NCBI GenBank assembly: GCA_964441285.1
Contig: CAYTUK010000002.1
Span: 25,551 to 89,550 of the forward strand
Direction of reading: 5' to 3'
Source: an uncultured Thiotrichaceae bacterium
GTDB lineage: Bacteria > Pseudomonadota > Gammaproteobacteria > SZUA-229
Length of the DNA stretch: 64,000 bases
Positions 1,554 to 34,746 of the stretch are shown here, one piece after another (the first letter of the stretch is position 1; the number at the start of each line of letters is the position of its first letter). The position numbers and the translations under genes were made by a program. Under the pieces are notes generated by a model. The model searched no databases. It saw nothing but the letters and a program-made list of their open reading frames with translations, and was not told where the DNA came from.

Positions 1554-1569
1554 TGCAAGGCCCGTGCCA
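1554..1569 (-). promoter_or_regulatory. sigma-54 (RpoN) promoter, -24/-12 elements, upstream of flgB
   Basis: Minus strand reads TGGCACGGGCCTTGCA, an exact TGGCAC-N5-TTGCA match. It lies about 40 nt upstream of the flgB ATG. Confidence 0.55.
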
Positions 1570-2842: not shown

Positions 2843-3026
2843 CTTTAAATTCAGCCATCGAAGAGACCAGGCGACAACTGCCCAGCGGATAGGTAACAAA
2901 CCAAAAAAAATTCCCCTTTAACAACAAAACGATAAAAAACCCCAGACCTGGATAATCAGGCATGAATCTTGCTTTATAACAATATACCGGATTCATAGCG
3001 ACGGAAATCCGTCGAACAGTTAATTA

Positions 3027-3900: not shown

Positions 3901-3927
3901 TAAAGTTTTTGTATTTTGGGTCGATAA
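3901..3927 (+). promoter_or_regulatory. sigma-28 (FliA) promoter for flgM
   Basis: TAAAGTTT-N11-GTCGATAA, a near-perfect FliA consensus, 38 nt upstream of the flgM ATG. Confidence 0.55.
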
Positions 3928-4886: not shown

Positions 4887-5204
4887 CTACATACGCCTCC
4901 GGCGAAAATCACTCACTCGATTCAACCGTTCAAGCAAACCACCGCCACCAGTAACACTGTCCCACATCATACTCGATATGCGGATACAGGCACCCATTGG
5001 AGTTTTGGCGAGTCGGCGCTCCTGGTCTACCCGCCATTGCAACCCGGTCAATCGACGCCGGCTGGCTTCAGGCACTTCATTAATAACCTCGTTCACCATT
5101 TGCTTACGCAATAGCTCAAATGCATCAGGATCCGCTTTAGCTATTTTCACCAGATTATCGAACCAGTTATCAAAATCTGTTGCCATGCAATCTAATTGCC
5201 TCAT
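4887..5204 (-). CDS. DUF3135-family small protein
   Basis: 105 aa. GAGGGA RBS 8 nt upstream of the ATG at 5204. Resembles the conserved DUF3135 proteins (MATDFDNWFDNLVKIAKADPDAFELL...). Confidence 0.45.
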   Translation of the reverse strand: MRQLDCMATDFDNWFDNLVKIAKADPDAFELLRKQMVNEVINEVPEASRRRLTGLQWRVDQERRLAKTPMGACIRISSMMWDSVTGGGGLLERLNRVSDFRRRRM

Positions 5205-5262: not shown

Positions 5263-6186
5263 TCAATTTTCGCTATTTAATATCTCCTTTAAATTCATTT
5301 CAACCTGTTGATATTTATTATGTATTTCAAGTGTTTTTTGCTCTAATAGTCGCATATCCACCACCTCTTCACAGCCTGCACGTTCAATTTCTCGACAACC
5401 ATCAGCCATTGTCAGCGCACCAACAGCCTGGCTGGAAGAGCGTAGCGAGTGGGCTATATCAACCACATGGGTAACGTTTTTCTCCGCCATTGCCGTTGAT
5501 AATTTTAATAATAGATCAGGCGTCTGCCCCAGATACATATTAATAACCCGCACCAACAATGGCACTTTGGTGGTTGACACGTTTTTTTTCTGTTGCCCAC
5601 TTTGACGCAAACGATTAATCATCACAGCATCAATAATCACATTTTTTTGCGCGGATTGAGTATCCAATGGATACTGTGCCTGCACATTAACAGGTTGCGC
5701 TGATGGGGTTATTGAAGCAGCACCACAATCAGACCCCAGCGGCATCCACTTTTTGACTACCGCATAAATATCGTCCATACCAAAAGGTTTTGAAAGAAAG
5801 TCATTCATCCCACTGTTAAGACACCTGTCACGAACGCCTGTAATTGCGTGAGCCGTTAAAGCAACAATTGGAACGGGAGGGGTTTGCTGCTGAGATTCAT
5901 TGAAACGAATTTTCTCTGTGGCCTTCAATCCATCCAGCACTGGCATCCTGTAGTCCATTAACACCAGCGAGTAATTCTCTTTCCGGCAGGCTTCAACTGC
6001 CTCTTTACCGTTGTTAACAACATCAATGTGGTAACCTAACTGCTCCAGCATATCCATAACAACTTCCTGATTTACCAGGTTGTCTTCTGCCAGTAAAATT
6101 TTCCTTTTTAATACAGGAATAGATAAATTTTTCATTTCATTACCACTTCTATTACCACCGCAAATACCCATTATAAATGGATCCAT
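5263..6186 (-). CDS. response-regulator receiver domain fused to C-terminal Hpt phosphotransfer domain (REC-Hpt)
   Basis: REC segment ILLAEDNLVNQEVVMDMLEQLGYHIDVVNNGKEA...LVLMDYRMPVLDGLKATEKIR. C-terminal Hpt signature HVVDIAHSLRSSSQAVGALTMA. True start may be the internal MKNLS (position 6135). Confidence 0.75.
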   Translation of the reverse strand: MDPFIMGICGGNRSGNEMKNLSIPVLKRKILLAEDNLVNQEVVMDMLEQLGYHIDVVNNGKEAVEACRKENYSLVLMDYRMPVLDGLKATEKIRFNESQQQTPPVPIVALTAHAITGVRDRCLNSGMNDFLSKPFGMDDIYAVVKKWMPLGSDCGAASITPSAQPVNVQAQYPLDTQSAQKNVIIDAVMINRLRQSGQQKKNVSTTKVPLLVRVINMYLGQTPDLLLKLSTAMAEKNVTHVVDIAHSLRSSSQAVGALTMADGCREIERAGCEEVVDMRLLEQKTLEIHNKYQQVEMNLKEILNSEN

Positions 6187-6395
6187 ATTTTCGATCTTGC
6201 CTATACCTTTTGCTTATACCCTTCGATTATAAACGAACGACTCCATTAATCTACTAATCTACAAAACCCATAATTGGAACAGGCAGACGGTTAATCCTAT
6301 TGCAGACTTCAATTTCTGCTTACACACAACTGGTAATATTCTGGCACTGGCATTATTATGCTAGCCAGCGATACTGTACTTACTAAAGGTCTACT

Positions 6396-8879
6396 ATGGA
6401 AAACAGCTTCACCCCAGATCTCCACGCCAGAATCCTGATTATCGATGACGATCCAATGATGCGTCTGCTAATGAGAGAAGCGCTGGATGATGGTACGTAT
6501 GATATTGAAGAGTTCGAAAACGGGGCTGACGCGCTCAAAGACATCCAGCAAAAAATACCCGACATGATTCTGCTGGATGTAAAAATGCCGGGCATGAGTG
6601 GGTTTGATGTTTGCACCCAGATTCGAGAAAAATACGATGAGAACAGCGTTTCAATCGTCGTGGTAACAGGCCTGGATGATTCTGACTCCATTGAGCGCGC
6701 CTTCAATCTCGGCGCAACGGCTTTTATTAATAAACCCATCAACCCCACCACATTACCCCATCGCATTAAATACTTACTCCAGGCAAGAAATGCTTTTATT
6801 GCACTTAAGCAGCGTGAGACCCATCTGGAACAGATGGATAAAATTTCACGTATCCTGACTTACAGCAACAATCTGGAGGTTATTTTGCAGGAAATTGCGG
6901 AAGAAATGCTAAACATCTTTACCGCCAACAGTGTCTTTATTTTTAGCTCGGATGATGTCAAACCTTATGATATAACCGCAGTCTGTCATGCCACGAGTGA
7001 ACAATGTCACGCTATTGCTGACAATACGGATAGATTTATAAAGGGTTTTTCTCATAATACCTTCTATCGGGCCAAAAATAGTGAATACCCGGTAGTAATA
7101 AAAATGCACCCAGCAGACAGTTGCCAGCAAGATGGACACGCCTGCTTAAAAACAATAATGATCAAAGCGCTGCATCCGCTCGACGATCAAACCTGGTATA
7201 TCATTATGCACAGGTGCGCGGTCGACACTGCCTGGCTTACCTGGCAGCAGGAGACTTTTTATCGTATCAGTATTCGTTTAAGCTCGATTTTATCCCATCA
7301 TTTATTGCTACAACGCCTGCATGAAAGCGAGTCATTACTCAGGCAGGCGCAACATATTGGAAAACTTGGCAACTGGAGCATTAACGTCAAAACCGGGGGA
7401 GTAATCTGGTCGGATGAAATATATCGCATCTATGGTTATGAGCCTGGTGACTTCACCCCTACGCTGAATACGCTGCATGAACACACTCTCTACGAAGACA
7501 TTAATCGCCTGAATCATTTTGAACAAAATGCTTTTTATTCAGGGAAAACGGCAAGTATTGAATACCGCATTCAACACCCTGACAACAAAATTCACTGGAT
7601 TCATAAACAAGGTATTGGGAAGTTTGATGACCAGGGCCATCTCATTGCGGTTAATGGCACACTACAGGATATAACCGAACGCATCCTGAAACAGGAGCAA
7701 GAGTTACATGACCATAAAATGGATGCCGTTGGTCAGCTTACCAGCGGTATTGCGCACGATTTTGGTAATTTAATGACCATTGCAAAAGGCAATCTTGAGC
7801 TAATTAATGACGCCTTTATGCAACACTACCAGATTGAATCTGATGACTGGGAGATTATCGAGGATGCACGTTCCGCTGTTTATGATGGCGTTAAACTGAC
7901 AAAACAATTACTCGCATTTTCACGAAAAAAATCCATTGCACCGAAACCGCTTAATATTGAGTCAAGCATTCAGAATTTTAGCAACCTGTTCAAAAAGACC
8001 CTCGGAGACATTATAACGTTAAGCCTTAAAATTCAGCATAACCTACCCGATATTCTGGTTGATAAAGCTCAGTTTGAGAGTAGCCTGTTAAATGCTGTAA
8101 TTAATGCCAGGGATGCCATGCCTAAAGGTGGACACATGACTATTCATGCAAAATTACACCATAAACCACCTCGGTCACTGCTCTTCAATTCATCGTATTT
8201 AACTGCAACTTCTTATATCTGTATCAACATTGCCGACACTGGTGAGGGCATGAGAACGGACGTTTTAAAACATGTAACCGAGCCCTTTTTTACGACCAAA
8301 AAAGAGACTGGCACCGGGCTGGGGCTAAGTATGATTTACGGCTTTATGCGCCAGTCTAACGGCGCACTTAATATTACCAGTAAGCCTGGCAAGGGCACTT
8401 GCGTATCAATGTATTTTCCGGTTTGTCCAACCACGACCATACAGGCTGAAAACGCACCCATTGCTTATCTTAATACAACCACCAAAGTGCTCACCAAAAC
8501 CCTAACGATTCTGGTCGTTGAAGACCGCGAAGCAGTACGGCGATTTGCTATGCGTTGCCTGAAAAATGCAAACATCCATATTCTACAAGCGGAAAATGCC
8601 AGCGCAGCCATAGAACTTTTAAATAATAACCCAACCGTACATCTGCTATTTTCTGATATTTTAATGCTCGGAGATATGAATGGTCGTGACCTGGCAACAT
8701 GGGTAAGAAACAATCGGCCAGAAATAAAAATCCTGCTCACCACCGCGTCAGAAAGAGAAAGCCATCTCGCACTGTCCACACACACAAATGACTTTCAAAT
8801 GTTGCCCAAGCCTTACAGTCAACAGGATTTGCTGAATAAAATTAACACTATTTTTCAGGAACCCTCTGCACCGGCCTGA
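6396..8879 (+). CDS. hybrid sensor histidine kinase (REC-PAS-HisKA-HATPase-REC)
   Basis: N-terminal REC (ILIIDDDPMM...ILLDVKMPGMSG). PAS (GNWSINVKTGGVIWSDEIYRIYGYEP). H-box LTSGIAHDFGNLMT. ATPase G-boxes DTGEGM and GTGLGLS. C-terminal REC (ILVVEDREAV...LFSDILM). Confidence 0.85.
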   Translation: MENSFTPDLHARILIIDDDPMMRLLMREALDDGTYDIEEFENGADALKDIQQKIPDMILLDVKMPGMSGFDVCTQIREKYDENSVSIVVVTGLDDSDSIERAFNLGATAFINKPINPTTLPHRIKYLLQARNAFIALKQRETHLEQMDKISRILTYSNNLEVILQEIAEEMLNIFTANSVFIFSSDDVKPYDITAVCHATSEQCHAIADNTDRFIKGFSHNTFYRAKNSEYPVVIKMHPADSCQQDGHACLKTIMIKALHPLDDQTWYIIMHRCAVDTAWLTWQQETFYRISIRLSSILSHHLLLQRLHESESLLRQAQHIGKLGNWSINVKTGGVIWSDEIYRIYGYEPGDFTPTLNTLHEHTLYEDINRLNHFEQNAFYSGKTASIEYRIQHPDNKIHWIHKQGIGKFDDQGHLIAVNGTLQDITERILKQEQELHDHKMDAVGQLTSGIAHDFGNLMTIAKGNLELINDAFMQHYQIESDDWEIIEDARSAVYDGVKLTKQLLAFSRKKSIAPKPLNIESSIQNFSNLFKKTLGDIITLSLKIQHNLPDILVDKAQFESSLLNAVINARDAMPKGGHMTIHAKLHHKPPRSLLFNSSYLTATSYICINIADTGEGMRTDVLKHVTEPFFTTKKETGTGLGLSMIYGFMRQSNGALNITSKPGKGTCVSMYFPVCPTTTIQAENAPIAYLNTTTKVLTKTLTILVVEDREAVRRFAMRCLKNANIHILQAENASAAIELLNNNPTVHLLFSDILMLGDMNGRDLATWVRNNRPEIKILLTTASERESHLALSTHTNDFQMLPKPYSQQDLLNKINTIFQEPSAPA

Positions 8880-9101
8880 ATCTATTTTATTCACGACTTA
8901 CGCAGAGCTTCTCTCAGAGTCTCCCCGACTTGATTTACATTACTTTACACATCTAATCGCCAATTTTTTGGCAACTCTGTTAAGTTATCTCTACAATTTT
9001 ATGACACAGGGCTAATACGGTTTAATGTCAATATTCTGACACTAGAAAACAATGTTCTCATCTATATATTTGAACATGAAGCCGATCTACGGGGACAGGT
9101 T

Positions 9102-10199
9102 ATGAACAAAAATTACAGCATTGATGAACAACCTAAAATGCAACGAAAAATTCTTTTTCGCAGTTTAGTCGGCAACAGCGCCATAATGCAGACAGTGCGA
9201 AATGAAATTGAACAGGTAGCTAACAGTGATGCCAATGTTCTGATTCTGGGCAAGTCAGGCACTGGCAAAGAAGTGGTTGCACGCAATGTTCATTATTATT
9301 CTGCTCGACACGATAAAGCGTTCGTTCCAGTTAACTGTGGCGCGATTCCCCACGAATTACTGGAATCAGAACTTTTTGGCCATGAAAAAGGGGCCTTTAC
9401 CGGTGCTATATCCAGCCGCCAGGGGCGTTTTGCTATGGCCGAAGGCGGTACGCTGTTTCTGGACGAAATAGGTGAGATGACAATGGCGATGCAGGTAAAA
9501 CTTTTGCGCGTCCTGGAAGAGCGTACTTTTGAACGTGTTGGTGGCAATAAAACCATTCAGGCGGATGTACGCATTATTGCGGCCACCAATCGCAATCTTA
9601 AAGAAATGGTTCAACAGGGCGATTTCAGAGAAGACCTCTATTTCCGACTTGATGTCTTCCCTATTCGCCTGCCGACATTACGTGAGCGGATTGAGGATTT
9701 ACCTTTACTGGTTAACGAGCTGATCTCTCGGCTTGAGCATAACAAAGGCAGCTCAGTGCGTTTTTCCACTGACGCTGTTATGGCACTCTCGCAATATGAC
9801 TGGCCCGGCAATGTACGTGAACTGGCCAATCAAATCGAACGCATGGCGATTAAACACCCCTGCGGACTGGTTCAGGCGCAACATTTACCGGAGAAATTCC
9901 GTGACTCAACCCAGCCATTATCACAACCGCTAAATGTCGCAGCCATTGATGCCGTTATGCAAAAGGATAATACAGACACACCCATACCTAATACGCCACC
10001 CATCAACTTTCCAACCGAGAATTTCGACCTTAAATCGTATATTTCTAATATTGAGGTCAGCATTATCCAGGCCGCGCTGGACCAATCACACGGCGTGATC
10101 GCACATACGGCAAAAAGTTTGGGGATGCAACGCACAACACTCGCAGAAAAAATGCGCAAATATCATATTAGCCGACCCGTAGAAGCATCAGCAGCTTAA
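9102..10199 (+). CDS. sigma-54-dependent transcriptional activator (AAA+ sigma-54 interaction domain plus C-terminal Fis-type HTH, no N-terminal regulatory domain)
   Basis: Walker A GKSGTGKE. GAFTGA motif in ESELFGHEKGAFTGA. Walker B/arginine-finger region in LFLDEIGEM. HTH at the C-terminus. The upstream frame has a stop at 8931 and no alternative start, so there is no REC or FleQ N-domain. Confidence 0.85.
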   Translation: MNKNYSIDEQPKMQRKILFRSLVGNSAIMQTVRNEIEQVANSDANVLILGKSGTGKEVVARNVHYYSARHDKAFVPVNCGAIPHELLESELFGHEKGAFTGAISSRQGRFAMAEGGTLFLDEIGEMTMAMQVKLLRVLEERTFERVGGNKTIQADVRIIAATNRNLKEMVQQGDFREDLYFRLDVFPIRLPTLRERIEDLPLLVNELISRLEHNKGSSVRFSTDAVMALSQYDWPGNVRELANQIERMAIKHPCGLVQAQHLPEKFRDSTQPLSQPLNVAAIDAVMQKDNTDTPIPNTPPINFPTENFDLKSYISNIEVSIIQAALDQSHGVIAHTAKSLGMQRTTLAEKMRKYHISRPVEASAA

Positions 10200-10285
10200 C
10201 TCAGGTTTACAAAAGAAGAAACCGGAGATACAAGCTTGTTCACCGCAAGCCTACCGACAAGACAGGTATATAGCGGTAGAAAAAA

Positions 10286-10359
10286 TGGAGCGGGTGATGG
10301 GAATCGAACCCACGTTTGAAGCTTGGGAAGCTCCAGTTCTACCATTGAACTACACCCGC
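10286..10359 (-). tRNA. tRNA-Gly (anticodon CCC)
   Basis: Minus strand reads GCGGGTGTAGTTCAATGGTAGAACTGGAGCTTCCCAAGCTTCAAACGTGGGTTCGATTCCCATCACCCGCTCCA. It folds as a cloverleaf with a 7-bp acceptor stem, D arm, TTCCCAA anticodon loop, T arm with TTCGATT, and encoded CCA. Confidence 0.85.
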
Positions 10360-10402
10360 ATGGACGAAGTAGAAACCGTTAGCTTCTATTCATTGGCGCG
10401 AA

Positions 10403-10430
10403 ATTATCGCATCTTTATAACAATTTGCAA
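10403..10430 (-). promoter_or_regulatory. sigma-70-type promoter for tRNA-Gly with GC-rich discriminator
   Basis: Minus strand TTGCAA-16/17 nt-GATAAT, followed by TTCGCGCC, about 44 nt upstream of the mature tRNA 5' end. Confidence 0.35.
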
Positions 10431-10600
10431 GCACAACAACATCCCTGTTGACGACAAACCTGAAGGAATACATTATTCATTTTCGACATAAATCACCAGA
10501 AAAAGGTTTCTTTACGCAAAAAGATGTTCATTAATAATGCTCACGCGACTTTCTGGATATATCGAAAAATACATTTTCTGGCTACGGTGACGGCATAAAA

Positions 10601-14837: not shown

Positions 14838-16178
14838 ATGGCAGAAATTAAAAATATACGGGTTCCTGATATTGGCGATTTTGAGGGTGTTGAAGTCATC
14901 GAAATCATCGTTTCACCTGGCGACTCCGTCCAGGTTGAGGACCCTCTGGTTTCACTTGAATCCGATAAAGCCGCCCTGGAAATCCCCGCTGAATTTGCCG
15001 GTATTGTTAAAGACATTAAAATCAAGCTGGGCGATAAAGTTTCTCAGGGCGATCTACTGATAACGCTTGAGGTTAATGAAAGCGGCCTTAATGAGAATAT
15101 AGCAGACAGCACGGTAGCAGAGCCAAATACAATCGCCACCGCCACACAGGAAGTAGTGCCCATCCAGACCACCACCGCAGCCGAACAACAAATCCCGGAA
15201 ACAGCGCAACCTGTTCCTGCCGCCAACCCACCTCACCCTGCTCCCACACGGCAGGTAGCTCCCATTGATGAAACGGGTTTCAGCAAAGCCCATGCCAGTC
15301 CAGCGGTCAGGAAATTTGCGCGTGAACTGGGTGCTGACCTCGGTCAGATGACAGGTTCGGGTACCAAAAATCGTATTTTGAAAGCGGATGTAAAAAGCTG
15401 GGTGAAGCAAGCGCTGGCATTAAATCCGTCTGGCAATACGTTCAGCGTTGCGCCCATGCCGGAAATTGATTTTAGTTTATTCGGTGACACAGAAACACAG
15501 CCGCTGACAAAGATTAATAAACTCACCGGAAAATTCTTGCATCGCAACTGGGTGACTATTCCTCACGTCACCCAGTTTGACGAAGCTGACATCACTGAAC
15601 TGGAAGCCTTTCGCAAACAGCTAAATGAAGAAAATAAAAAAGAGGGTGTACGTATAACAGTGCTTGTCTTTTTAATGAAAGCACTCGTTTCTGCACTAAA
15701 AGAATATCCGCGTTTTAATGCCTCACTGGACGTCAAGGGTGAAACTCTGGTGCTAAAAAAATACGTTAATATTGGTGTTGCAATGGATACTCCTGCGGGT
15801 CTGGTTGTCCCTGTAATTCGCGACTGCAACCATAAAACTTTGCTCGAACTGGCAGACGAACTGGTCACTACCAGTCAGCGGGCGCGCGATAAAAAACTGT
15901 CGCCCGCCGACATGCAAGGTGGCTGCATCAGTATCTCCAGCCTTGGCGGTATTGGCGGTACGGCCTTTACCCCCATTGTCAATGCACCGGAAGTGGCTAT
16001 TTTAGGTGTTTCACGCTCATCAATAAAGCCGGTTTATCAGGGAGATGAATTTGTCCCACGGCTAATGTTGCCCTTATCCTTGTCGTATGACCACCGCGTG
16101 ATTGATGGTGCTGATGGTGCACGTTTCACCTCTTATTTAAGTAAAGTCCTGTCTGATACCCGCAGACTACTACTATAA
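14838..16178 (+). CDS. aceF: dihydrolipoamide acetyltransferase E2 (single lipoyl domain)
   Basis: Lipoyl-lysine motif LESDKA. Pro/Ala-rich linker. E3-binding domain. Catalytic DHRVIDGA motif. Confidence 0.9.
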   Translation: MAEIKNIRVPDIGDFEGVEVIEIIVSPGDSVQVEDPLVSLESDKAALEIPAEFAGIVKDIKIKLGDKVSQGDLLITLEVNESGLNENIADSTVAEPNTIATATQEVVPIQTTTAAEQQIPETAQPVPAANPPHPAPTRQVAPIDETGFSKAHASPAVRKFARELGADLGQMTGSGTKNRILKADVKSWVKQALALNPSGNTFSVAPMPEIDFSLFGDTETQPLTKINKLTGKFLHRNWVTIPHVTQFDEADITELEAFRKQLNEENKKEGVRITVLVFLMKALVSALKEYPRFNASLDVKGETLVLKKYVNIGVAMDTPAGLVVPVIRDCNHKTLLELADELVTTSQRARDKKLSPADMQGGCISISSLGGIGGTAFTPIVNAPEVAILGVSRSSIKPVYQGDEFVPRLMLPLSLSYDHRVIDGADGARFTSYLSKVLSDTRRLLL

Positions 16179-18553: not shown

Positions 18554-19099
18554 TTACTTTACCCCCATTTTAGACATCATCTGCTGATTCATCTTTGTTA
18601 TTACCGCCTGAGTAATCGCCTTAAACGGCAGTAGCTTGCCACCGTGCTTGAGGATAAATATCTGCGCAGCGGCTTTCTGCTTAAACGCAGCCAACGTTGG
18701 CCCCATTGCACCTTTCATGTCAGACCCCACTACATACCAGGCCGAACGCCCTGGTATCAGGTATTTATCATTGGGTTTTTTCCAGGACGCTCGACCCATA
18801 TCATGAACATAAATCTCCCGGGTATTGTTTTTGTTTTCAGGCTGGAGATACCACGAAAACATGTCGCGGGTGGAACAGAATTTCTCTACCTGACCACTGC
18901 GGTTATAAAGCTCACCTTTTGGGCCAGCAAATTTTGAAATTATCATGCCACATAGATGACATTCTTCACCCGGCTTAATGGCGACAGGCCCATGCTTTTT
19001 GCTTCCTGAATCACCGGAACCATTACAGGCACTTAGGCTTAGACCCAGCACCAGTAGAATGACGAACAGAAAGCCCGGTTTAATTTCCTGCTTGAGCAT
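18554..19099 (-). CDS. nosL: copper-chaperone lipoprotein NosL
   Basis: Lipoprotein signal with lipobox LSAC. Conserved NosL core (EECHLCGM). Last gene of the nos cluster. Confidence 0.8.
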   Translation of the reverse strand: MLKQEIKPGFLFVILLVLGLSLSACNGSGDSGSKKHGPVAIKPGEECHLCGMIISKFAGPKGELYNRSGQVEKFCSTRDMFSWYLQPENKNNTREIYVHDMGRASWKKPNDKYLIPGRSAWYVVGSDMKGAMGPTLAAFKQKAAAQIFILKHGGKLLPFKAITQAVITKMNQQMMSKMGVK

Positions 19100-19110
19100 A
19101 ATCACCCGCC

Positions 19111-19932
19111 TCATACAACTCTTCGGCGTAATACAAGATAGGCAACCCCAAAGGGTACAGCCACCCACAGCAGCATAATAGCGAATAGAGCGCTGTAACT
19201 CAGTTTAAGATCAGTCGCAATGCTCATTAAGCTGGTACCCCCTTCAAACCCCATCATGTTTATTAACCGGAACAGATCGGTCGGGTTAAGTAACATCAGG
19301 TAGGGCAATGCGTCCGGCTGCAATTTGCCAGCAGTGATCACCAGCAACCCCAGCAATCCCAGGTCAAAAACAAGTACGAAGAAGAACCAGACAATAAGCG
19401 CAATACCTGCGGCTTTAGATTTCTCTGCCACACTGGCACTGATTAAATAGGCGATGGATAGAAACACCATGCCTAATATAATGGACGAAGAAATAAACAG
19501 GCTAAATGCCTTAACCAGATCCAGCGTGTCTACCCCGGCCGCAAACAGCAGTATCATAAGGGCAGAAATGCCAAAACCGATTACGGTGGAAATGGCCAGA
19601 ATCAGGGTGTGTCCCAATAACTTACCCATTAATAATTCAGCTCTGGATAAAGGATAAGTGAGCAACAACATCAGAGTGCCTTCTTCATCCTCACCTACGA
19701 TAGCATTGTAAGCCAGCAATAACGCGATCAGAGGAATAATGAACACTGCTAAACTTGCCAGACTGGCGATAGTATTGGGGATGGAGGTAAATCCGATTAC
19801 CCCCGAAGCCACCGCACCAAACCAGGCGATACCCGATGCCAGTAAAGCAAATATAAGCGTAATCGCCACAATCCAGCGATTACGAAATCCATCTTTCAGC
19901 TCTTTTTGAGCCACGCAGAAAATGGCATTCAT
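19111..19932 (-). CDS. nosY: ABC transporter permease NosY
   Basis: 273-aa polytopic membrane protein immediately downstream of nosF, in the canonical nosDFY order. Confidence 0.8.
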   Translation of the reverse strand: MNAIFCVAQKELKDGFRNRWIVAITLIFALLASGIAWFGAVASGVIGFTSIPNTIASLASLAVFIIPLIALLLAYNAIVGEDEEGTLMLLLTYPLSRAELLMGKLLGHTLILAISTVIGFGISALMILLFAAGVDTLDLVKAFSLFISSSIILGMVFLSIAYLISASVAEKSKAAGIALIVWFFFVLVFDLGLLGLLVITAGKLQPDALPYLMLLNPTDLFRLINMMGFEGGTSLMSIATDLKLSYSALFAIMLLWVAVPFGVAYLVLRRRVV

Positions 19933-20870
19933 GACCCCACCTCCTGTTGCACATCGTTTAACTCAGGTGCTGCATCCATTAAACAGGTATAAAGTTGTTC
20001 CAGTGTGGGCAGATTAATATCCACATCTTCCACCTTCGGCATCGCCAGCAACTGCCTGAGCAATGGCATTTTATTTACCTCACTGGTAAAACCTTCCACG
20101 GTTGCCTCATTTACACGGTGATGATCGTACATCAATGCCGCAGTTTGATCACAAAGACAGCTATAATTAATATTGCTTTTAATGCGCACTCGAATGGGCA
20201 ACTGCGCCTGCTTGCTTAAATGCGCGAGCGTCCCAAGGGCGCGCAATTCCCCATTACTCAGCACCGCGGCGCGATCAATATGGCCTTCCAGTCCCGGCAG
20301 AATATGTGAAGACAGGATAATTGCACAGCCTTCTTTTTTGAGCTCATCAATCGTGGTGTAGAAATCCTGCGTGGCAATCGGATCCAGCCCAGCCGTAGGC
20401 TCATCCAGCAATAATAGTTTAGGGATAGTCAGAATCGCCTGCGCCAATCCCAAACGTTGTTTCATTCCTTTTGAATAAGTTTTTACCTTACGCCGAGCTA
20501 CATGACTCAAACCCACTTTCTCAAGCAGTTGATCACAGCGCGATTTATTAACCCGCTTTAATTTACCAAAATAATACAGCACCTCACGACCTTCAAGCTG
20601 CGGGTAAAACGAGACATTTTCCGGCAAAAAACCTAACTGAAAGCGTAATGGATTAAAGCCCTCCGCGGCGGGCGCTTTACCCATCACCTGAACCTGACCG
20701 AAAGTGGGTGATAGCAAACCCAAGATCAATTTTATCGTCGTGGTTTTACCCGCACCGTTATGGCCGAACAACCCCATCACTTCGCCTGAGTGGATACTCA
20801 GACTCAGGTTCCGCAGCGCTGTCACCTGCTGATATTGTTGTGTAACCTGATTAATTTCTACAACCGTCAT
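19929..20870 (-). CDS. nosF: ABC transporter ATP-binding protein NosF
   Basis: Walker A GHNGAGKTT. ABC signature YSKGMKQRL. Walker B LLLDEP. Its 3' end overlaps the nosY start. Confidence 0.85.
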   Translation of the reverse strand: MTVVEINQVTQQYQQVTALRNLSLSIHSGEVMGLFGHNGAGKTTTIKLILGLLSPTFGQVQVMGKAPAAEGFNPLRFQLGFLPENVSFYPQLEGREVLYYFGKLKRVNKSRCDQLLEKVGLSHVARRKVKTYSKGMKQRLGLAQAILTIPKLLLLDEPTAGLDPIATQDFYTTIDELKKEGCAIILSSHILPGLEGHIDRAAVLSNGELRALGTLAHLSKQAQLPIRVRIKSNINYSCLCDQTAALMYDHHRVNEATVEGFTSEVNKMPLLRQLLAMPKVEDVDINLPTLEQLYTCLMDAAPELNDVQQEVGS

Positions 20871-20877
20871 AGCTTCC

Positions 20878-22389
20878 TCACTGGTGTGTACGCATTATCG
20901 AAGTGGTGTCAGTTGGCGGTGACATTAATGGATGGCTATCGCGAATACCGGGTGATTTCAATACTGGGAATTCAGACTGTACCGCCTTCAATAATCGGAT
21001 TGCAGGGCTATTCATTAAAAGTTTTGCGGATGGGTATTTCCACAACAGCTTGTCAATGCTGTCATTGGGCTCGTACCAGGTATCACCGATACCATTATTA
21101 TCACGGTCCCAGCCCATGTAATCACTCCAGTAATTGCCTCGACCATTATGCGACCATTCCTGGCGACGTCTACCCACGTACTTTACCTGGCGCCTGTTAT
21201 GGATAAATTGATTGCCAAAAAAAGTGTTGTCCTCAGAACCAGCAGTCAGATGAATGCCGATATCACTTTTTTCTAATTTATTATTGCTGATGGTATTAAA
21301 CAGTGAGTTATAAACAAACAGGGCTTTGCCTTCGGCACCATCAATGGTTTGCTGTCCAGACGGATTAACCCCCTGGTTTACATTACTGAAGGTGTTACCA
21401 GAAATCGTTGAGTGCGTGATAAAATTCATCAACATGCCATAATTCTGGTCATGGTCCGAACGGTTACCGATAATAGTGAGATATTTTGATTGCATCATTG
21501 CGTAGCCGGTACGTGTGTTATGCGTGTAGTTATTTTTAATGATATTGTTGTACGAATACATATAATGAATTCCGTAGCGCAGGTCATGCATTTCGTTATG
21601 GCGAAGAGTATTGCCATTGCTGGTCTGGATATAAATACCATCACGCGTATGCCAAATTTCGTTATTGGCAATATCTGCGCCGTGATTACCAGAAAGGTGA
21701 ATGCCATTGCCTCGATCCTGTGAACGTATCTTCAGGTTGCCCTCAACTTTATTGCCTTCAACAGTGGCATCAGCACAACTGTCGAGATAAACCCCAAACG
21801 CATCACCGCGTAAATAATTGTTCTTGATCAGGACATGGGATGCCGACGATCTCACATAGATACCCGCATCCATAGTGGTTAAATCATGTCCCCAGTTAAT
21901 AATCCGGCAACCAGTTACGGTAACATTTTTTGCGGTAATGGTCAGCGTATTTCCATGTCCACCGCCATCGAGAATAGCACCCGACGCACAGGCTAATGTA
22001 ATGCTTTTATTAATGATGAAATTACCCGTATAGCGACCTTTTTGCAGCAAAATCTGCGCACCGTTCTGTCCCCGTTGTAGCGCCGCAGCAAATCCACCGA
22101 CAGTCGTAGTGATGGACTTCGCCAGCACTGGCAAACTTATAAAAAATACGCTAATGACAAAAAAACCACCCAGCTGCTTTGCACATTGAATGATTCTATT
22201 ATGGGTTTTATTACCGAAACGAATGAAAAGGCTACCCATGGTTAAAGACACGCGGTGAATACGTCCATATAGACTCGGCACCTGCATCCCTGTGGCTGAC
22301 GGTCTTGAACCATGGGTCGCCTTTTCATTTGTACTGTTAGTAATTGTATACAGCATGATGCATGACAGGGTAAGGAGAAACAGGAGCAA
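20878..22389 (-). CDS. nosD: periplasmic copper-binding beta-helix protein NosD (start uncertain, probably an internal Met)
   Basis: Repeated right-handed parallel beta-helix units (NNxxxGN / IHLxxN repeats). Positioned between nosZ and nosF. Confidence 0.8.
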   Translation of the reverse strand: MLLFLLTLSCIMLYTITNSTNEKATHGSRPSATGMQVPSLYGRIHRVSLTMGSLFIRFGNKTHNRIIQCAKQLGGFFVISVFFISLPVLAKSITTTVGGFAAALQRGQNGAQILLQKGRYTGNFIINKSITLACASGAILDGGGHGNTLTITAKNVTVTGCRIINWGHDLTTMDAGIYVRSSASHVLIKNNYLRGDAFGVYLDSCADATVEGNKVEGNLKIRSQDRGNGIHLSGNHGADIANNEIWHTRDGIYIQTSNGNTLRHNEMHDLRYGIHYMYSYNNIIKNNYTHNTRTGYAMMQSKYLTIIGNRSDHDQNYGMLMNFITHSTISGNTFSNVNQGVNPSGQQTIDGAEGKALFVYNSLFNTISNNKLEKSDIGIHLTAGSEDNTFFGNQFIHNRRQVKYVGRRRQEWSHNGRGNYWSDYMGWDRDNNGIGDTWYEPNDSIDKLLWKYPSAKLLMNSPAIRLLKAVQSEFPVLKSPGIRDSHPLMSPPTDTTSIMRTHQ

Positions 22390-22503
22390 TCTCCATTCAC
22401 CTAAAAGTTTGTAGTAATCAAAAATAGCGCCCGTTTTTTATCCGCTAAGGAAATGCCCTGTCACCGAATACACACTCAGTAACAGGGCTAACAGCCCTTC
22501 TGG

Positions 22504-24420
22504 CTACGCTTTTTCTACCAGCATTCTGCCGCGCATTTCCATATGTAAAGCGTGACAGAACCACTGGCAGTAATACCAGTACACGCCCGGATTTTTAGCC
22601 GTAAAGGTAATCGATGCGGTTTCCTGCGGACTGATTTCCATCACTACACCATGATCGGTTACGGTAAATCCATGCGTAACATCTTCCACCATATCCAGAT
22701 TGGTAACCGCCACCGTTACTTCATTACCGGCCTTAACAGTAAACTGTTCCATACCATATTGAGGTGCAATAGAAGTCATATAAACTCGAACCTTATTCCC
22801 ATCACGGATTACCTTGTTATCTGTTTCCAGCGTTACGCCGTCTTTTTTAGCCTGGGCAACTGTTGCGGCAAAAAAACTGTCTTCTCGATCCCATATTTTT
22901 CTGGTTTTATTTTCCAGAACATTCCGATGCACGAGAATGCAGTCATGCGGTTCTGCAAAAGCCGGGCCATCATCAACTAGAATCATTTCACTGCCGGAAA
23001 TATCAATCAACTGGTCATTTTCAGGGTGCAATGGACCCACGGATAAAAATCGGTCTTTTGAAAATTTGCTAAGTGAAACCAGCCACTTACCATCCGCATC
23101 GCGGGTTTCACCCATTGAGGTGTGATCATGCCCCGGCTGAAACTGGACATCCAGTTTTTGGCTAATGTAATTAACTTTCTTACCCTGATAAGCCTGAATG
23201 GCTTTTTCAATGTCCCACTTTACTATCTGGCTATCGATAAACAAGGTGGTGTAGGCATTACCACGTCCATCGTAAGCGGTATGCAGAGGCCCTAAGCCGA
23301 GTTCTGGTTCACCGACTACTGCATCACGCGGCTTAATTTTATCGTTAAACAGATCATCCAGTTTTTTAATATCAACGATTGAAACCGTTGGGGAAAGTTT
23401 GCCCGCAATACAAAAATATTTACCATCAGGTGTCGTGTTTACCCCGTGAGGACTTTTTGGAATAGGAATGTATCGTGTCACTTTAGAACCATGACGACCA
23501 TCAACCACAGGAACCTTCGAAGTGCCAATGGTGGTAAATTTTCCAGCTTTAACCGCTTTTTCAATACGGGGTAAATTGAATATAACGACCCAGTCACGCT
23601 CATTGCTGATCATTCCTGCCAGATTAGTGGCGTCTTCAGAGTTGTAGCAAGTGGTGGCAAAATATTTACCCTGGTAATCCGCATCGGCATTATCCAGATT
23701 ACCATCAACAATAACCTGTGCGAAAACTTCCATTTTCTCTGCATCAATTATATTGAACATAGTGAAATATTTAGCCGGGTCATTAATGTCCCTGCCATCA
23801 TTAGGATGCGGAATACGAAATTCACTATTACAGAAAAAATATTTGGTATAAGGGACTTTTTGAACCCGTAAACCATGAATTGCCTGTGAGTTAGGCACGG
23901 TCAACATTTTATCGCATTTCATCACATCACAACGGATGCGCGCTACCCGTGAGTTGGCTTTATCATTGACAAAAATGTACTTGCCATCATAACGACCATC
24001 TTTCATCGACATATGTGGATGGTGTAAATCACCGTTAGGAAAATGCGCTGAGTCACCTTTTATGCGCTTACTCTCGTTGGTTAATCCCCAGCCTGTCGCC
24101 GAGTCAATATTAAAAACCGGAATACGCATAATCTCCCGCATGGAAGGCACGCCCATAATACGAACTTCGCCAGACTGACCACCACTCCAGAAACCATAGT
24201 ACTCATCCAGGTCACCTGGCTTCACATGCGTTTTACCAAATTCATCCTGTGCATCTTTAGCAGCTCGGGCAAAAGCATCCGGGGTCATCACTGTTGCTGC
24301 CAGACCGGCAACACCGGTTATCCCTGCAGCACCCACAGCACCTGCAGCGCCCAGAAATTTACGCCGACTTATTGCTGAAGAGGTATTCTCCTCGCCATGA
24401 TTTTTTTCATTATCACTCAT
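22504..24420 (-). CDS. nosZ: nitrous-oxide reductase NosZ (clade I, Tat-exported)
   Basis: Twin-arginine signal [17 protein letters not shown]-terminal CuA cupredoxin motif [12 protein letters not shown]. 638 aa. Confidence 0.95.
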
Positions 24421-24449
24421 GATAGATCTCCTAAGGTTAAAGTTAAGTT

Positions 24450-26570
24450 TTAGCTGATACCCAGTTGGGTTACTGAAATTTTCGAAGGCTCAGGTCTGCC
24501 TTTTTTGCGCCGCTTATTCTTATTAACAAGAGGCGGACATTTTTTCTCATCGTGATAGGTCATCTGACAATCCAGGCAGTGGTGGCACTCATTAGCATTA
24601 ATCTTGCCATCAGGATGAATCGCCTGAATCTCACATTCCACCGCACACAGCTGACAGGGTTGGCCACATTCTTTGCGTCGTTTAAGCCAGTCAAACAAAC
24701 GCAGCTTGGTTGGGATCGCCAGTGCAGCACCCAGAGGGCAAATATAGCGACAATAAACTTTACGGGTAAAGATCGAAATAAAGAGAAGCGTTATCGCATA
24801 GGCTACGAACCACCATTCCCGCTGGAAGAACAGCATAATGGTGGTCTTGAAAGGTTCCACTTCTGCAGCTTTCTCCGCCATGCTGACAGATTGTAACGAG
24901 AGGCCAAAAAGTGCTAGCAAAATAATATATTTCACCGCCCAAAGTCGCTCATGGACGGCAAAAGGTAATTCATACTGTTTAACTTTAAATTTGCGTGCCA
25001 GCTCATTGATCAGCTCCTGTAACGCGCCGAACGGACAGAGCCAGCCGCAGAAAACGCCGCGCCCCCAAAGTAAAATAGTCGCAGCGGTAAACCCCCAGAG
25101 CATAAAGATAACCGGATCCATCAGGAAAACATCCCAACGAAACTTACCCATTAGTGCATGAGTAAAAGTAAAGACATTTTCCACAGAGAGCTGACCTAAT
25201 GAGTACCAGCCAATATAAAACAGGGTATAGATCAGATACCCTCGACGTAAATTATGTAACAGGCGAGGACGGCGCACCAGCAGGTCCTGCATAAAGATAA
25301 TAGCCATCAACAAGACCAGACTGAAAGCAACAATAGCAACCTGAAAAATACGCGCCTGCCAGATTTTAGCCCACACTGGTAACGGCTTCACAACAACAGG
25401 AGCGGGTGGCCGAGTAATGTATTTTTCGGGAATCTGGTAACTCGCACTGAACGTGTGGAAAACACTATCCAGTGGACCCGTCGCGCGTTTCACCAGCAGC
25501 TGTAGATGCCACATGGCACCTGGATCGAAGTCATAGTGCTGACGAATAATGAAGATAGCCATTTCATCAAAATCGGGATGTCCTTTGGCATAAATATCAG
25601 ATAACCGATAGTAATCCAGATCCCGGAAATTAATACCGATCATACCCTGACTTACCTTAACGCGATCAAAAATGCCGCCCCGGACATAACCTGAACCTTT
25701 AAAAGAATACATGCCGCGACCCATAATCGCCACAGCCTGTTCACCGGGTTTTAATTTTTTCAGTAACCATTGAAACTGTTCTTTACCCAACAGGTTCTGA
25801 CCAATGGTTGGTGCATCCAGATAGGTATAATACAGATCAATAAAAGTATCCTGCTTTTCACCGGGTGTTGCTGTATCCACATTTTGTGCAGCCGTTCCTT
25901 TGAAACCATCATCCACCTGTGCACGCGTTAGATGCAGGCGGCGAATAGAACCATCACCGGTAAGCGCTTGCCAGTCTTCGGGCTTAAACAACTTCATTTT
26001 GACAAGTGCGTGCGGCATGGACTCTGCTGCTGTTTTTTTCAGAATACCGACTTCTTCGGCCACTTTTTTGGCCGCATGCATAATGGACTGGTTCACCACC
26101 ATTGACGTGACCGTGGCACTGCTTATGCCATCAACGGTATTTTTTCCGGTACCCACTTCAACATGTTCGGCAACCGATTTGGTCACATATTGATGTGCAA
26201 AGTCATACAGTTTCTGCACCGGGATTCCCACCAGTAAAATGGGTTCATGCTGCTCGACCACCCAGGCATCTTTAATAAAACCTTTGGCATCAATCGTAAC
26301 CAGTGTATTAACAGGCTGACCTGAATAAGCGGGAATATCAACTTGTTGTGCGGTTTGAAAGCTGTAACCAACTATCTTTTTCCCTGCATAAACAGTTGCT
26401 ATTTCTAATTTTTTATCCTCATTGGTTACGCGATCTGCACCTGGAAAAAGTTTCATGACATGCGTTTTCCAGGTGACAGGCAGCGGCTTCAGTGCTGCGT
26501 TCGAAAGGGACGAGAACACGATCACACAAAACAAAAGAACAACACTGGAAGGGTGAAACCTGAATAACAT
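24450..26570 (-). CDS. nosR: NosR membrane-bound FMN-binding/ferredoxin-type regulator of N2O reductase
   Basis: Signal peptide, periplasmic FMN-binding region, transmembrane segments. C-terminal CxxCxxCxxxCP-type clusters ([12 protein letters not shown] and CHHCLDC). Confidence 0.85.
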
Positions 26571-33394: not shown

Positions 33395-33400
33395 TAATTT

Positions 33401-33886: not shown

Positions 33887-34162
33887 GTATTATTTCCTGT
33901 TGATGGTTAGCGCTGGATGTATCCAGACACTGATCAAACTTACTACTGAGTTGTATAAAAAGAATGCTCTGCGTTCAAGACACGCAGTAGATACATTCAG
34001 GCAGGCCCGACATTCGCAGCCCTGCGGCTGAAGGTTTTGAAGCAGAAGCATCCGTTTTATTTGCACTATTAATAAGCCACCATAGCAAAGCAATGCCGAG
34101 TTTAAACAGACCGGCTGCAAACAGCTTTTCACTGGTAAATTCATCATCTAATCGACAGCGGC

Positions 34163-34699: not shown

Positions 34700-34746
34700 T
34701 ATTTAACTTTACTGTGTTGTAGATTATATTTAACTGACACCTATAT

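Follow-up and report, generated by a model that had tools for sequence, protein, structure and literature searches.

A predicted FleQ-family sigma-54 activator without the N-terminal domain, encoded beside flagellar and signalling genes

In the window (the whole stretch of 64,000 nucleotides analysed here), we identified a sigma-54 activator, sFleQ, which by its sequence is a member of the FleQ/FlrA family and carries no FleQ or REC N-domain. It represents what is apparently a conserved, previously undescribed branch of the FleQ family of flagellar master regulators; a limited literature search found no paper on an N-domain-less FleQ clade. In the bacteria that carry it, sFleQ is probably the flagellar master regulator. 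The explanation that we prefer as a whole, with fair but not strong confidence, is that sFleQ acts as the top flagellar regulator, is gated by c-di-GMP and is influenced only indirectly by the neighbouring phosphorelay. The features concerned are listed in Table 1.

Table 1 Features of the sFleQ locus and of candidate target promoters in the window.
Feature	Positions	Strand	Description
Sigma-54 promoter TGGCACGGGCCTTGCA	1554..1569	-	exact match (TGGCAC-N5-TTGC), upstream of flgB
Sigma-54 promoter-like AGGCATGAATCTTGCT	2958..2973	+	5' of flgA; candidate sFleQ target
flgA leader palindrome GCGACGGAAATCCGTCGA	2998-3015	+	after the sigma-54 element; box matrix score only 0.7
DUF3135 gene	4887..5204	-	Pfam assignment; between flgN and REC-Hpt
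REC-Hpt phosphotransfer protein	5263..6186	-	307 aa by first ATG, 302 aa in the gene call
HK2	6396..8879	+	827-aa hybrid histidine kinase, REC/~200 aa without Pfam match/PAS_3/HisKA/HATPase_c/REC
Direct repeat TTTACATTACTTTACA	8934..8949	+	sFleQ promoter region; candidate regulator site, OmpR/KdpE-type-like form
FleQ box 1 GCCAATTTTTTGGC	8959..8972	+	overlaps -35-like TTGGCA (8968-8973)
-10-like TACAAT	8992-8997	+	sFleQ promoter, 3' of FleQ box 1
FleQ box 2 GTCAATATTCTGAC	9027..9040	+	PWM score 15.1; 68 bp 3' of box 1
sFleQ	9102..10199	+	365-aa sigma-54 activator of the FleQ family; no FleQ/REC N-domain
tRNA-Gly(CCC)	10286..10359	-	conserved neighbourhood breaks here

Family membership and loss of the N-terminal domain

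The Pfam profiles placed Sigma54_activat at residues 22-188 of sFleQ (6e-75), together with AAA_lid_14 and an HTH_8 domain at 316-354 (2.2e-11). The protein consists of a 17-aa tail, with which it starts directly ahead of an LFRS linker (R20), an AAA+ core with Walker A (K56), GAFTGA (97-102) and Walker B (D121/E122), a lid, and the Fis-type HTH (316-354). Its top PDB matches were FleQ and FlrA, with residues 137-484 of P. aeruginosa FleQ as the alignment span (E 1e-132; PDB 8p53), while NifA, ZraR, FlrC and PspF followed far behind, the next family after FleQ having an E of 1e-80 and PspF one of 5e-56. The identity to full-length relatives was 55-61%. In the tree, the short sFleQ clade was monophyletic (support 100/100) and joined the gammaproteobacterial FleQ/FlrA proteins, also with 100/100 support, on a long stem branch. 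A PspF/HrpS-type identity is ruled out by the similarity values and by the gene neighbours. The first-pass annotation, which had itself proposed the AAA+ core phylogeny as a check, was thus mistaken in choosing PspF and HrpRS as comparators for what is a FleQ derivative; the activator reached 300 bits on the NCBIfam pspF profile, whose cutoff is 443. The matches listed in a contig scan, which the generic motif FGHEKGAF had filled up, were distant full-length relatives only.

According to the residue table, Walker A/B, the R-fingers and GAFTGA are kept in 15/15 sFleQ proteins; the HTH is likewise retained in the clade. Also conserved in 15/15 are the c-di-GMP residues R144, R185, N186, E330 and R334 of FleQ, whose equivalents in the sFleQ of the window are R20, R61, N62, E206 and R210; among other bEBPs, R144, N186 and E330 were each found in 0/10, R185 in 6/10 and R334 in 2/10. 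Of two further residues, R138 is only partly conserved in sFleQ and R151 is not. In FleQ, R144, R185 and R334 take part in binding ATP as well (PMC10723142), so that their conservation by itself is no proof of c-di-GMP binding. The LFRS linker and the KEVVARN (after Walker A) and ExxxR c-di-GMP motifs are common to sFleQ and FleQ. Sensor I is Asn in all 15 sFleQ proteins, versus His (H287) in 11/11 canonical FleQs. The AAA+ residues that contact FleN are conserved in sFleQ, but they are kept to an equal degree in unrelated bEBPs and therefore do not discriminate for inhibition by FleN/FlhG.

The first-pass annotation had described the activator as having a closed upstream frame and no regulatory N-domain, and this was confirmed: an in-frame TGA lies at 8931, all three frames are stopped between 8879 and 9102, and the region 5' of sFleQ holds conserved promoter elements and no coding sequence. 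Nothing was found in favour of a frameshifted or misassembled full-length fleQ, whose correction would restore an N-terminal receiver. The ORF is short and without the N-domain in all 46 related loci examined, and the identical sFleQ protein is present on several independent assemblies. Upstream of LFRS, the open frame spans at most 88 codons (in the 42 loci where LFRS was located), compared with ~142 in FleQ, and canonical FleQ relatives do carry PF06490. The absence of the domain is therefore not an assembly error; together with the closed frames and the upstream promoter elements, these data make such an artefact vanishingly improbable. In P. aeruginosa, structural and genetic studies of FleQ hold the receiver-like N-domain to be necessary for dimerisation. 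FleQ of this species has further been reported to need the domain in order to be active and to bind FleN stably (PMC10723142), so control by FleN may be lost in sFleQ.

The signalling module and its neighbourhood

The three ORFs of the signalling trio are real, with the coordinates of the first-pass annotation, and their domain limits were upheld by Pfam: REC-Hpt contains Response_reg (30-144, 1.4e-25) and Hpt (214-295, 6.4e-9), and HK2 a Response_reg at each end with PAS_3 (337-422), HisKA (445-512) and HATPase_c (559-676) between them. The D/E-D, D57, T87 and K109 equivalents are intact in all three receivers, as are the His residues of HisKA (IAHDFGN) and Hpt (IAHSLRSSS), so that the module appears to have a complete residue set for the predicted multi-step His-Asp-His phosphorelay. 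The earlier statement that this relay cannot phosphorylate the activator also stands.

The position of the trio between flgN and tRNA-Gly was right as to the overall context, but a DUF3135 gene separates flgN from REC-Hpt and the trio therefore does not abut flgN. Likewise, HK2 and sFleQ are adjacent, but REC-Hpt is divergent from both, on the opposite strand. The conservation of the trio as a module had been missed altogether, as had the nature of REC-Hpt, which is a shortened form of a hybrid kinase, HK1. In many relatives, the counterpart of REC-Hpt is the C-terminal end of this ~750-aa kinase, whose long forms (738-773 aa, HisKA-HATPase-REC-Hpt) occupy the same position; a shortened version like that of the window was seen in L108, L104, L128 and L131 (L numbers denote loci). 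The HK2 gene lies directly 5' of sFleQ in 31/38 loci as well as in L131-L133 (3/3), and in the seven loci without HK2 upstream, sFleQ and its promoter are unchanged. It is only from this gene neighbourhood that we infer a link from the relay to the activator.

The flagellar genes in the window are flgC, flgB, cheV, flgA, flgM and flgN, and the neighbours of sFleQ are the kinases, DUF3135, a tRNA and argG; the NCBI contig of this organism stops 193 bp past flgL. No GGDEF/EAL, pilZ, fleN, OmpR-type or partner-switch genes were found in the window. In relatives, a motA-motB-pilZ operon usually lies downstream of sFleQ, the ORFs 3' of the gene in 29 loci giving 18 PilZ, 17 MotB_plug, 21 OmpA and 12 MotA matches. 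Within the subclade of the window, pilZ-motB-motA follows straight after sFleQ in L131, L108 and L110, where the window has tRNA-Gly. In the flg-adjacent subclade, the module is accompanied by the DUF3135 gene, which holds the same position in L085, L108 and L131. Near the module in L084, L110 and L131-L133, there are c-di-GMP enzymes and partner-switch genes, and the module-side genes of relatives encode DGCcoil-GGDEF, REC-GGDEF-EAL, REC-SpoIIE (PP2C), REC-HATPase_c_2 and STAS proteins. Module sites lie beside motAB-pilZ, cheR/cheB or flgAMN, and never in the fleQ slot.

Promoter elements and the empty fleQ position

The direct repeat in the sFleQ promoter was found at a near-constant distance in 44/44 loci with enough upstream sequence (match of at least 11/14; 22 loci exact), and the 21-kb loci have it essentially nowhere else. 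A link through such TTTACA repeats to the promoter of a neighbouring OmpR-type regulator was unsupported, with only 1/5 loci. FleQ box 1, with a PWM score of 22.6, is the maximum of the window. Its palindrome, G-N-CAA-W4-TTG-N-C, occurs in 44/44 sFleQ promoters, against an estimated expectation of ~0.05 per locus, and agrees in form with the FleQ box described in the literature, GTCAAT-WW-ATTGAC (PMC10723142). FleQ box 2 lies probably downstream of the transcription start; a second box is equivalent in L108/L110 and stands at other spacings in L093, L094, L111, L118 and L121. Taken alone, the exact GTCA-N6-TGAC at 9027 (2 matches versus 0.6 expected) is not conserved as such in relatives, and the site gained meaning only when the clade-derived matrix picked it out as a second box. 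By this PWM, strong FleQ-box sites in the window occur only in the promoter of sFleQ itself. The palindromes and the HTH_8 domain may form the operator/reader pair of sFleQ; with two of the boxes in the sigma-70-type promoter of sFleQ itself, this would imply autoregulation.

The first-pass annotation had based a flagellar role for the activator on a perfect sigma-54 promoter of flgB. The exact match is present and is conserved in L085, L137 and L138; however, the flgB promoter depends on FleR/FlrC in P. aeruginosa/Vibrio and on FleQ in P. putida (10.1101/2021.08.29.457346), and it is therefore not specific evidence. Either sFleQ or a FleR-type activator may act on it. The sigma-54 element upstream of flgA is conserved in L085 (AGGCACGCATCTTGCT), and at the position of the flgA leader palindrome, L085 and L108 have strong FleQ-box matches (scores 19.2 and 17.4). 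In P. putida, FleQ and sigma-54 directly control PflgA and PflgB, with boxes located upstream or downstream (10.1101/2021.08.29.457346). The matrix scan found no strong FleQ box near flgB or flgA in the window, and a weak match at 1509 before flgB proved to be the -10 element of a sigma-28 promoter. Elsewhere, a FleQ box stands beside the sigma-54 cheR promoter in L104, with a weaker site in L086, and in L136 and L138 the sigma-54 promoter of fleS is preceded, at ~90-125 bp, by an upstream activating region with two palindromes, which is conserved between these loci. No FleQ boxes or sigma-54 promoters were found before motA, where 4/5 loci have sigma-28 promoters.

In L136 and L138, the gene order is fliS-fliT-ORF157-fleS-fleR(-fliE) with no FleQ remnant, whereas fleQ lies beside fleS-fleR in 8/8 canonical-FleQ control loci with visible context. 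These two contigs were assigned to sFleQ carriers by matching sources and represent two carrier lineages; the slot was seen on contigs of incomplete genomes, and a canonical FleQ could lie elsewhere in them. In L137, which stands for the subclade of the window, fleSR is not on a contiguous stretch and the slot falls outside the view. Related sulfur-oxidiser lineages commonly have a canonical FleQ, but no match among those compared was traceable to an sFleQ carrier. Because the usual fleQ position is empty in these carriers, sFleQ is most likely their top-level flagellar regulator, and the earlier suggestion of a flagellar role is now much better founded, on FleQ/FlrA family membership and on the empty slot in two lineages.

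Gating of sFleQ and comparison with known systems

In canonical FleQ, c-di-GMP and FleN exert their control via the AAA+ domain (PMC10723142, PMC8528422). The protein is not phospho-regulated either, so the gating puzzle that had been raised over sFleQ does not follow from the missing receiver alone. The c-di-GMP residues are kept in 15/15 proteins, and gating of sFleQ by c-di-GMP, possibly also by FleN, via the AAA+ domain is what we infer as most likely. In the proposed mechanism, the Fis-type HTH would recognise FleQ-box palindromes, including the two in the sigma-70-type promoter of sFleQ, and the ATPase with its GAFTGA loop would act on the sigma-54 promoters of fleSR and flgA, possibly flgB. 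sFleQ would not be gated by phosphorylation; the AAA+ domain itself would be the sensor, as in FleQ, and c-di-GMP in the linker/AAA+ pocket (R20, R61, N62, E206, R210) would turn sFleQ off, as might FleN/FlhG. The relay of HK2 and REC-Hpt/HK1 would act indirectly, either through c-di-GMP enzymes such as those beside the module of relatives (HsbD-like DGCcoil-GGDEF, REC-GGDEF-EAL), also via their REC-PP2C and REC-kinase partner-switch proteins, or through a response regulator on the conserved TTTACA repeats of the sFleQ promoter.

Alternatively, sFleQ could be an accessory paralogue, that is, a second FleQ-type activator in carriers that also hold a canonical FleQ, which either forms mixed oligomers with FleQ (compare FleQ/FleT and HrpR/HrpS) or governs a separate motility sub-regulon of stator/PilZ brake, chemotaxis and flgAMN genes. 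An old paralogue fits the long stem branch and the Asn at sensor I, which would be ancestral, as well as a relocated orthologue does. The location of the module, never at the fleQ slot, the FleQ boxes before flgA and cheR, the known mixed bEBP oligomers (PMC10084136, PMC11999139) and the frequency of canonical FleQs among related sulfur-oxidisers point in the same direction. We nevertheless regard this reading as unlikely, as the canonical slot is empty without remnant in two carrier lineages while fleQ is kept in all eight controls, no canonical FleQ match was traced to a carrier, and the motA operon has sigma-28 promoters instead of sigma-54 promoters or FleQ boxes.

The remaining alternatives concern gating. 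A constitutive sFleQ, always on and ruled by its expression through a TTTACA-repeat factor and negative autoregulation at the boxes, would have retained the 'c-di-GMP' residues for ATP binding. The elaborate promoter layout in 44/44 loci, the catalytic role of R144, R185 and R334 (PMC10723142), the intrinsic activity of activators without an N-domain such as PspF (PMC10084136) and the constitutive ATPase of FleQ (PMC8528422) are in line with it; yet N186 and E330 are FleQ-specific (0/10 other bEBPs versus 15/15 sFleQ), the module of relatives lies among PilZ, GGDEF and EAL genes, and in P. aeruginosa a tandem of FleQ boxes at a sigma-70 promoter is the layout that responds to c-di-GMP, which renders constitutive activity rather improbable. 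Finally, there is only a slim chance that sFleQ is a 'split' enhancer-binding protein, in which a receiver acting in trans (HK2 or REC-Hpt) replaces the lost inert receiver-like domain. That this receiver docks on the AAA+ domain in a phosphorylation-dependent manner, as an in-trans regulatory domain, seems very improbable to us. Tight linkage of HK2 and sFleQ (31/38 plus 3/3 loci), the receiver with which HK2 ends just 5' of sFleQ, and the frequent control of receiver-less bEBPs by partner proteins would suit such docking. On the FleQ N-domain profile, however, E. coli CheY (7.0 bits) outscored the three module receivers (at most 1.2 bits); there is therefore no sign of gene fission, and the idea that the C-terminal receiver of HK2 is the lost FleQ N-domain has no sequence support. 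Moreover, sFleQ and its promoter are the same in the seven loci without HK2 upstream. If the split reading were true, a phosphorelay would directly switch a FleQ-type master regulator, jointly with c-di-GMP sensing on the AAA+ domain.

The sFleQ clade, which is strongly conserved without the N-domain and apparently serves as master regulator in genomes with an empty fleQ slot, offers a natural experiment, in which the capacities of the AAA+/HTH core alone (c-di-GMP sensing, box recognition, sigma-54 activation) can be told apart from the functions that need the N-domain. Through the fixed linkage of sFleQ to a pair of hybrid kinases, to a PilZ-stator operon and to c-di-GMP enzymes, the module is also a compact, testable circuit for the question of how environmental signals reach the top of the polar-flagellum hierarchy in uncultured marine gammaproteobacteria.

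FleQ, FlrA and FlaK of Pseudomonas, Vibrio and Shewanella are sigma-54 flagellar master regulators and c-di-GMP receptors, with which sFleQ shares the AAA+ domain, lid, HTH, GAFTGA and flagellar gene context; as for FleQ, its likely operator is an AT-centred 14-bp GxC...GxC palindrome. Unlike them, sFleQ has no N-domain, has Asn at sensor I, is not encoded between fliS and fleS, and has two hybrid kinase genes, and in most cases motAB-pilZ, linked to it. Its promoter has FleQ boxes, in contrast to PfleQ of P. putida, which is not FleQ-regulated. PspF and HrpR/HrpS share the layout of AAA+ plus HTH without a regulatory domain; however, sFleQ has no neighbouring anti-activator gene of the pspA or hrpV kind, and these proteins, like the other bEBPs sampled, lack the FleQ-specific N186 and E330. 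FleT of the Cereibacter (Rhodobacter) sphaeroides Fla1 system is likewise a flagellar sigma-54 activator without an N-domain (PMC10084136, PMC11999139). In P. aeruginosa, an Hpt relay beside flagellar genes is coupled to a diguanylate cyclase and links c-di-GMP with motility (PMC5085249). This Pseudomonas HptB-HsbR-HsbA-HsbD cascade is encoded beside cheR/cheV-flgAMN-flgZ, and the module resembles it, in domain content and position only, as an Hpt relay with hybrid kinases beside flgA-flgM-flgN, to which relatives add DGCcoil-GGDEF cyclase, REC-PP2C, REC-kinase, STAS and PilZ proteins; in contrast to the stand-alone HptB, the Hpt of the module forms one protein with a receiver or with an entire hybrid kinase.

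A short FleQ-family activator

All three genes of the signalling trio were confirmed at their annotated positions, with domains assigned by Pfam (see table). The gene order in the window is flgC, flgB, cheV, flgA, flgM, flgN, a DUF3135 gene, the trio, tRNA-Gly(CCC) and argG; thus, the first-pass placement of the trio between flgN and tRNA-Gly holds as an order, with the DUF3135 gene intervening after flgN. As described, the activator cannot extend further upstream: all three frames contain stops there, including an in-frame TGA at 8931.

No NCBIfam equivalog matched the activator at its cutoff. Among solved structures, it aligned end to end with residues 137-484 of P. aeruginosa FleQ (E 1e-132), followed by other FleQ/FlrA chains, with NifA (1e-80), ZraR, FlrC (5e-70) and PspF (5e-56) far behind. 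Its 120 best database relatives (66-84% identity), several of which bear the JGI label 'flagellar transcriptional regulator A', are all 339-402 aa long, and none carries a precomputed N-terminal domain; the extra length of the longer members is only a low-complexity tail. The nearest organism-named relatives are FleQ/FlrA proteins of 480-511 aa with an N-terminal extension of 120-160 aa. The AAA+ phylogeny that the first-pass annotation had proposed was run by neighbour-joining on the AAA+ and HTH regions with 100 bootstraps. Fifteen short proteins were monophyletic (100/100) on a long stem, and this clade, hereafter sFleQ, joined gammaproteobacterial FleQ/FlrA in a group without other enhancer-binding proteins (100/100). 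Searching with a DNA pattern specific to the clade added 42 metagenomic loci. Since the gene was short in 46/46 loci, and the open frame 5' of the LFRS motif, where located, spanned at most 88 codons versus about 142 in FleQ, loss of the N-domain is, judged from these sequences, a fixed character of the clade.

Across diversity, FleQ-like proteins without the N-domain are not unusual: of the top 150 cluster representatives, about 21 are shorter than 400 aa, although some of these may be fragments. Because activators without a receiver have been described before, among them PspF, HrpRS and FleT, sFleQ varies an already known theme and is not a category of its own. A limited literature search found no description of the clade or its module.

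Features of the window (positions in nucleotides)
Feature	Position	Strand	Description
REC-Hpt protein	5263-6186	minus	307 aa; Pfam
HK2, hybrid kinase	6396-8879		827 aa; REC-PAS_3-HisKA-HATPase_c-REC; Pfam
HK2 residues 135-335	6801-7400		about 200 residues between N-terminal receiver and PAS; no Pfam match; may be an undescribed sensor domain
sFleQ, sigma-54 activator	9102-10199		365 aa; Sigma54_activat from residue 22, HTH_8 316-354
TTTACA direct repeats	8934-8949		two to four repeats; 44/44 loci
AT-centred palindrome	8959-8972		14 bp, G-N-CAA-W4-TTG-N-C, GCCAATTTTTTGGC; overlaps -35-like hexamer; 44/44 loci
-10-like element			after palindrome in sFleQ promoter; 44/44 loci
Sigma-28 (FliA)-type promoter before flgM	3901-3927	plus	TAAAG-N14/15-GCCGATAA
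Sigma-28 (FliA)-type promoter before cheV	2842-2815	minus	TAAAG-N14/15-GCCGATAA
Sigma-28 (FliA)-type promoter before flgB	1533-1507	minus	TAAAG-N14/15-GCCGATAA; beside sigma-54 promoter
Nitrous-oxide reductase cluster	18554-26570	minus	complete-looking; nosL, nosY, nosF, nosD, nosZ, nosR-like
ccm cytochrome c maturation cluster	32072-39572		after nos cluster
Type IV pilus minor-pilin cluster	49635-56155		ComP/PilE-like, PilY1, PilW, GspH/FimU-like
Exact TGGCAC-N5-TTGC	49816-49830		inside the pilin gene; probably a chance match

The module across relatives

The trio is a conserved module. The hybrid kinase HK2 lies directly 5' of sFleQ on the same strand in 31/38 loci with enough sequence and in three further long contigs, and beyond it a divergent gene ends in REC-Hpt. 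In many relatives this gene encodes a 738-773-aa HisKA-HATPase-REC-Hpt hybrid kinase, of which the window and loci L108, L104, L128 and L131 retain the REC-Hpt part alone. No receiver has lost its acid-pocket, phospho-Asp, Thr or Lys residues, and the H-box of HisKA and the histidine of Hpt are likewise intact, so at the residue level the phosphorelay looks functional. HK2 was missing 5' of sFleQ in L090, L094, L099, L106, L111, L117 and L124, some with moaA-like or other genes; the FleQ box (the FleQ operator palindrome) and TTTACA repeats remain in all seven, which indicates that linkage to the kinase is less tightly conserved than the promoter architecture.

The usual 3' neighbour of sFleQ is a convergent motA-motB-pilZ operon (among 70 downstream ORFs, matches to PilZ 18, MotB_plug 17, OmpA 21 and MotA 12), with a sigma-28-type promoter 5' of motA in 4/5 loci and often followed by an OmpR-type regulator. 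L131, from the window's own subclade (78% identity), has the full layout, seen also in L110: flgEDCB-cheV, flgAMN, DUF3135, REC-Hpt, HK2 and sFleQ, and then pilZ-motB-motA, an OmpR-type regulator, SPOR, a kinase, DGCcoil-GGDEF, REC-HATPase_c_2 and REC-PP2C. Other sFleQ loci add REC-GGDEF-EAL, PAS-GGDEF-EAL, CheR/CheB and STAS genes. In L084, a sigma-54 promoter-like sequence, TGGCATACAGTTTGCA (3473, minus strand), about 370 bp 5' of a module-adjacent REC-GGDEF-EAL gene, raises the possibility that sigma-54 controls a c-di-GMP enzyme. The window follows the L131 layout as far as sFleQ and breaks at tRNA-Gly; its remainder is housekeeping, with none of the pilZ-motB-motA, OmpR-type regulator, GGDEF/EAL, CheR/CheB, STAS or partner-switch genes. 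At 10200-10600 it has the tRNA and argG where its subclade relatives L131 (11180-13667), L108 and L110 have pilZ-motB-motA and the OmpR-type regulator immediately after sFleQ, and this difference suggests that the locus was rearranged, or lost a segment, at tRNA-Gly(CCC).

The sFleQ promoter and candidate targets

The same promoter arrangement precedes sFleQ in 44/44 loci with enough sequence. Its palindrome, with a chance expectation estimated at about 0.05 per locus, is built like the published FleQ box (GTCAAT and ATTGAC with two A/T between; PMC10723142) when compared through the GxC ends. A matrix built from the clade's promoter palindromes gave only two good matches in the 64-kb window, 22.6 at 8956 and 15.1 at 9024, both in the sFleQ promoter, and second boxes recur in the relatives. 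In P. aeruginosa, sigma-70 promoters with tandem boxes are repressed by FleQ as long as c-di-GMP stays low; by this likeness, the candidate boxes suggest that sFleQ may be autoregulated.

In L085 and L108, a strong box immediately precedes the start codon of flgA and follows a sigma-54 promoter, which is also conserved in the window (2958-2973). Strong boxes stand before cheR in L104 and L128 as well, with a sigma-54 promoter in L104; L086 has a weaker box with a sigma-54 promoter. In the window, the palindrome in the flgA leader (2998-3015) has diverged and scores low. This variant, GCGACGG-N-GTCG(C/A), also occurs upstream of fleS in L138 (about 16150-16170) and equivalently in L136, and may represent a second class of FleQ-type operator.

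The perfect sigma-54 promoter reported at flgB was found as an exact TGGCAC-N5-TTGC. The matrix gave no convincing box near it; a weak match before flgB was rejected, being the sigma-28 -10 element. PflgA and PflgB of P. putida depend directly on FleQ and sigma-54, with boxes upstream or downstream, whereas rod and hook genes of P. aeruginosa depend on FleR. The proposed tie of the activator to the flagellum through flgB is therefore only possible.

Canonical FleQ and the gating of sFleQ

Related sulfur-oxidiser lineages commonly carry canonical FleQs (473-516 aa, with PF06490); on a less favoured reading, sFleQ could be an accessory paralogue of one encoded elsewhere, unseen. None of those found was matched to an sFleQ carrier. 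FlgL of the window organism, whose contigs stop just past flgL, served as the anchor for looking beyond the flg cluster. Two carrier lineages were informative: L136, with the same FlgL as the 592,963-bp contig of P0069, and L138 (102,241 bp, P0018). Both contain flgB-L, flagellin(s), flaG, fliD, fliS, fliT, a 157-aa reverse ORF, fleS and fleR, and L138 runs on into fliE and fliF. fleQ is absent from its usual position between fliT and fleS in both, with no remnant by tblastn; the order fleQ-fleS-fleR was seen in 8/8 canonical-FleQ loci with visible context. In L137, of the window's subclade, the cluster stops at fliT and fleSR lies elsewhere, leaving this position out of view. Two GxC...GxC palindromes are conserved before the fleS sigma-54 promoter (about 125 bp in L136, about 90 bp in L138), which is exact in L138. 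The reverse ORFs (L136, 18219-18692; L138, 15473-15946) are 77% identical and match DUF6998 weakly. On the best reading, sFleQ would be the FleQ of the carrier lineages, moved to another locus and without its N-domain, yet still at the head of flagellar activation.

Canonical FleQ is controlled not by phosphorylation but through its AAA+ domain, by c-di-GMP and FleN (PMC8528422, PMC10723142), so N-domain loss costs the protein an oligomerisation and FleN-stabilising element and not a sensor. Walker A, Walker B, the arginine fingers, the Asn switch and GAFTGA were each present in 15/15 sFleQ proteins. So were the equivalents of the FleQ c-di-GMP contacts R144 (LFRS linker), R185 and N186 (after Walker A), E330 and R334 (PMC10723142), which are R20, R61, N62, E206 and R210 in the window. 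These residues are stricter in sFleQ than in the full-length FleQ sample, and R144, N186 and E330 occurred in 0/10 other enhancer-binding proteins compared. The caveats are that R144, R185 and R334 of FleQ also serve ATP binding (PMC10723142), that R138 is only partly conserved and R151 is not, and that sensor I is Asn in sFleQ versus His in 11/11 canonical FleQs. The FleN-contact residues (defined in PMC8528422) are uninformative, because unrelated activators keep them equally. Conservation of the pocket makes c-di-GMP the probable gate of sFleQ. A rival is a constitutive activator regulated by expression level only. Alternatively, a relay receiver might dock directly on sFleQ. The earlier statement that the relay cannot phosphorylate this receiver-less activator directly stands, and the gene-fission version of docking finds no support in the sequence.

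The sigma-28-type promoters of the window agree with the reported FliA dependence of PflgM and PcheV in P. putida. P. putida PfleQ, unlike what is suggested for sFleQ, is not autoregulated. Steadily accompanied by PilZ, GGDEF/EAL and partner-switch genes, the relay is similar to the Pseudomonas HptB-HsbR-HsbA-HsbD cascade beside flgAMN (PMC5085249), and this gene neighbourhood suggests that it would act on sFleQ through c-di-GMP or via a regulator at the TTTACA repeats.
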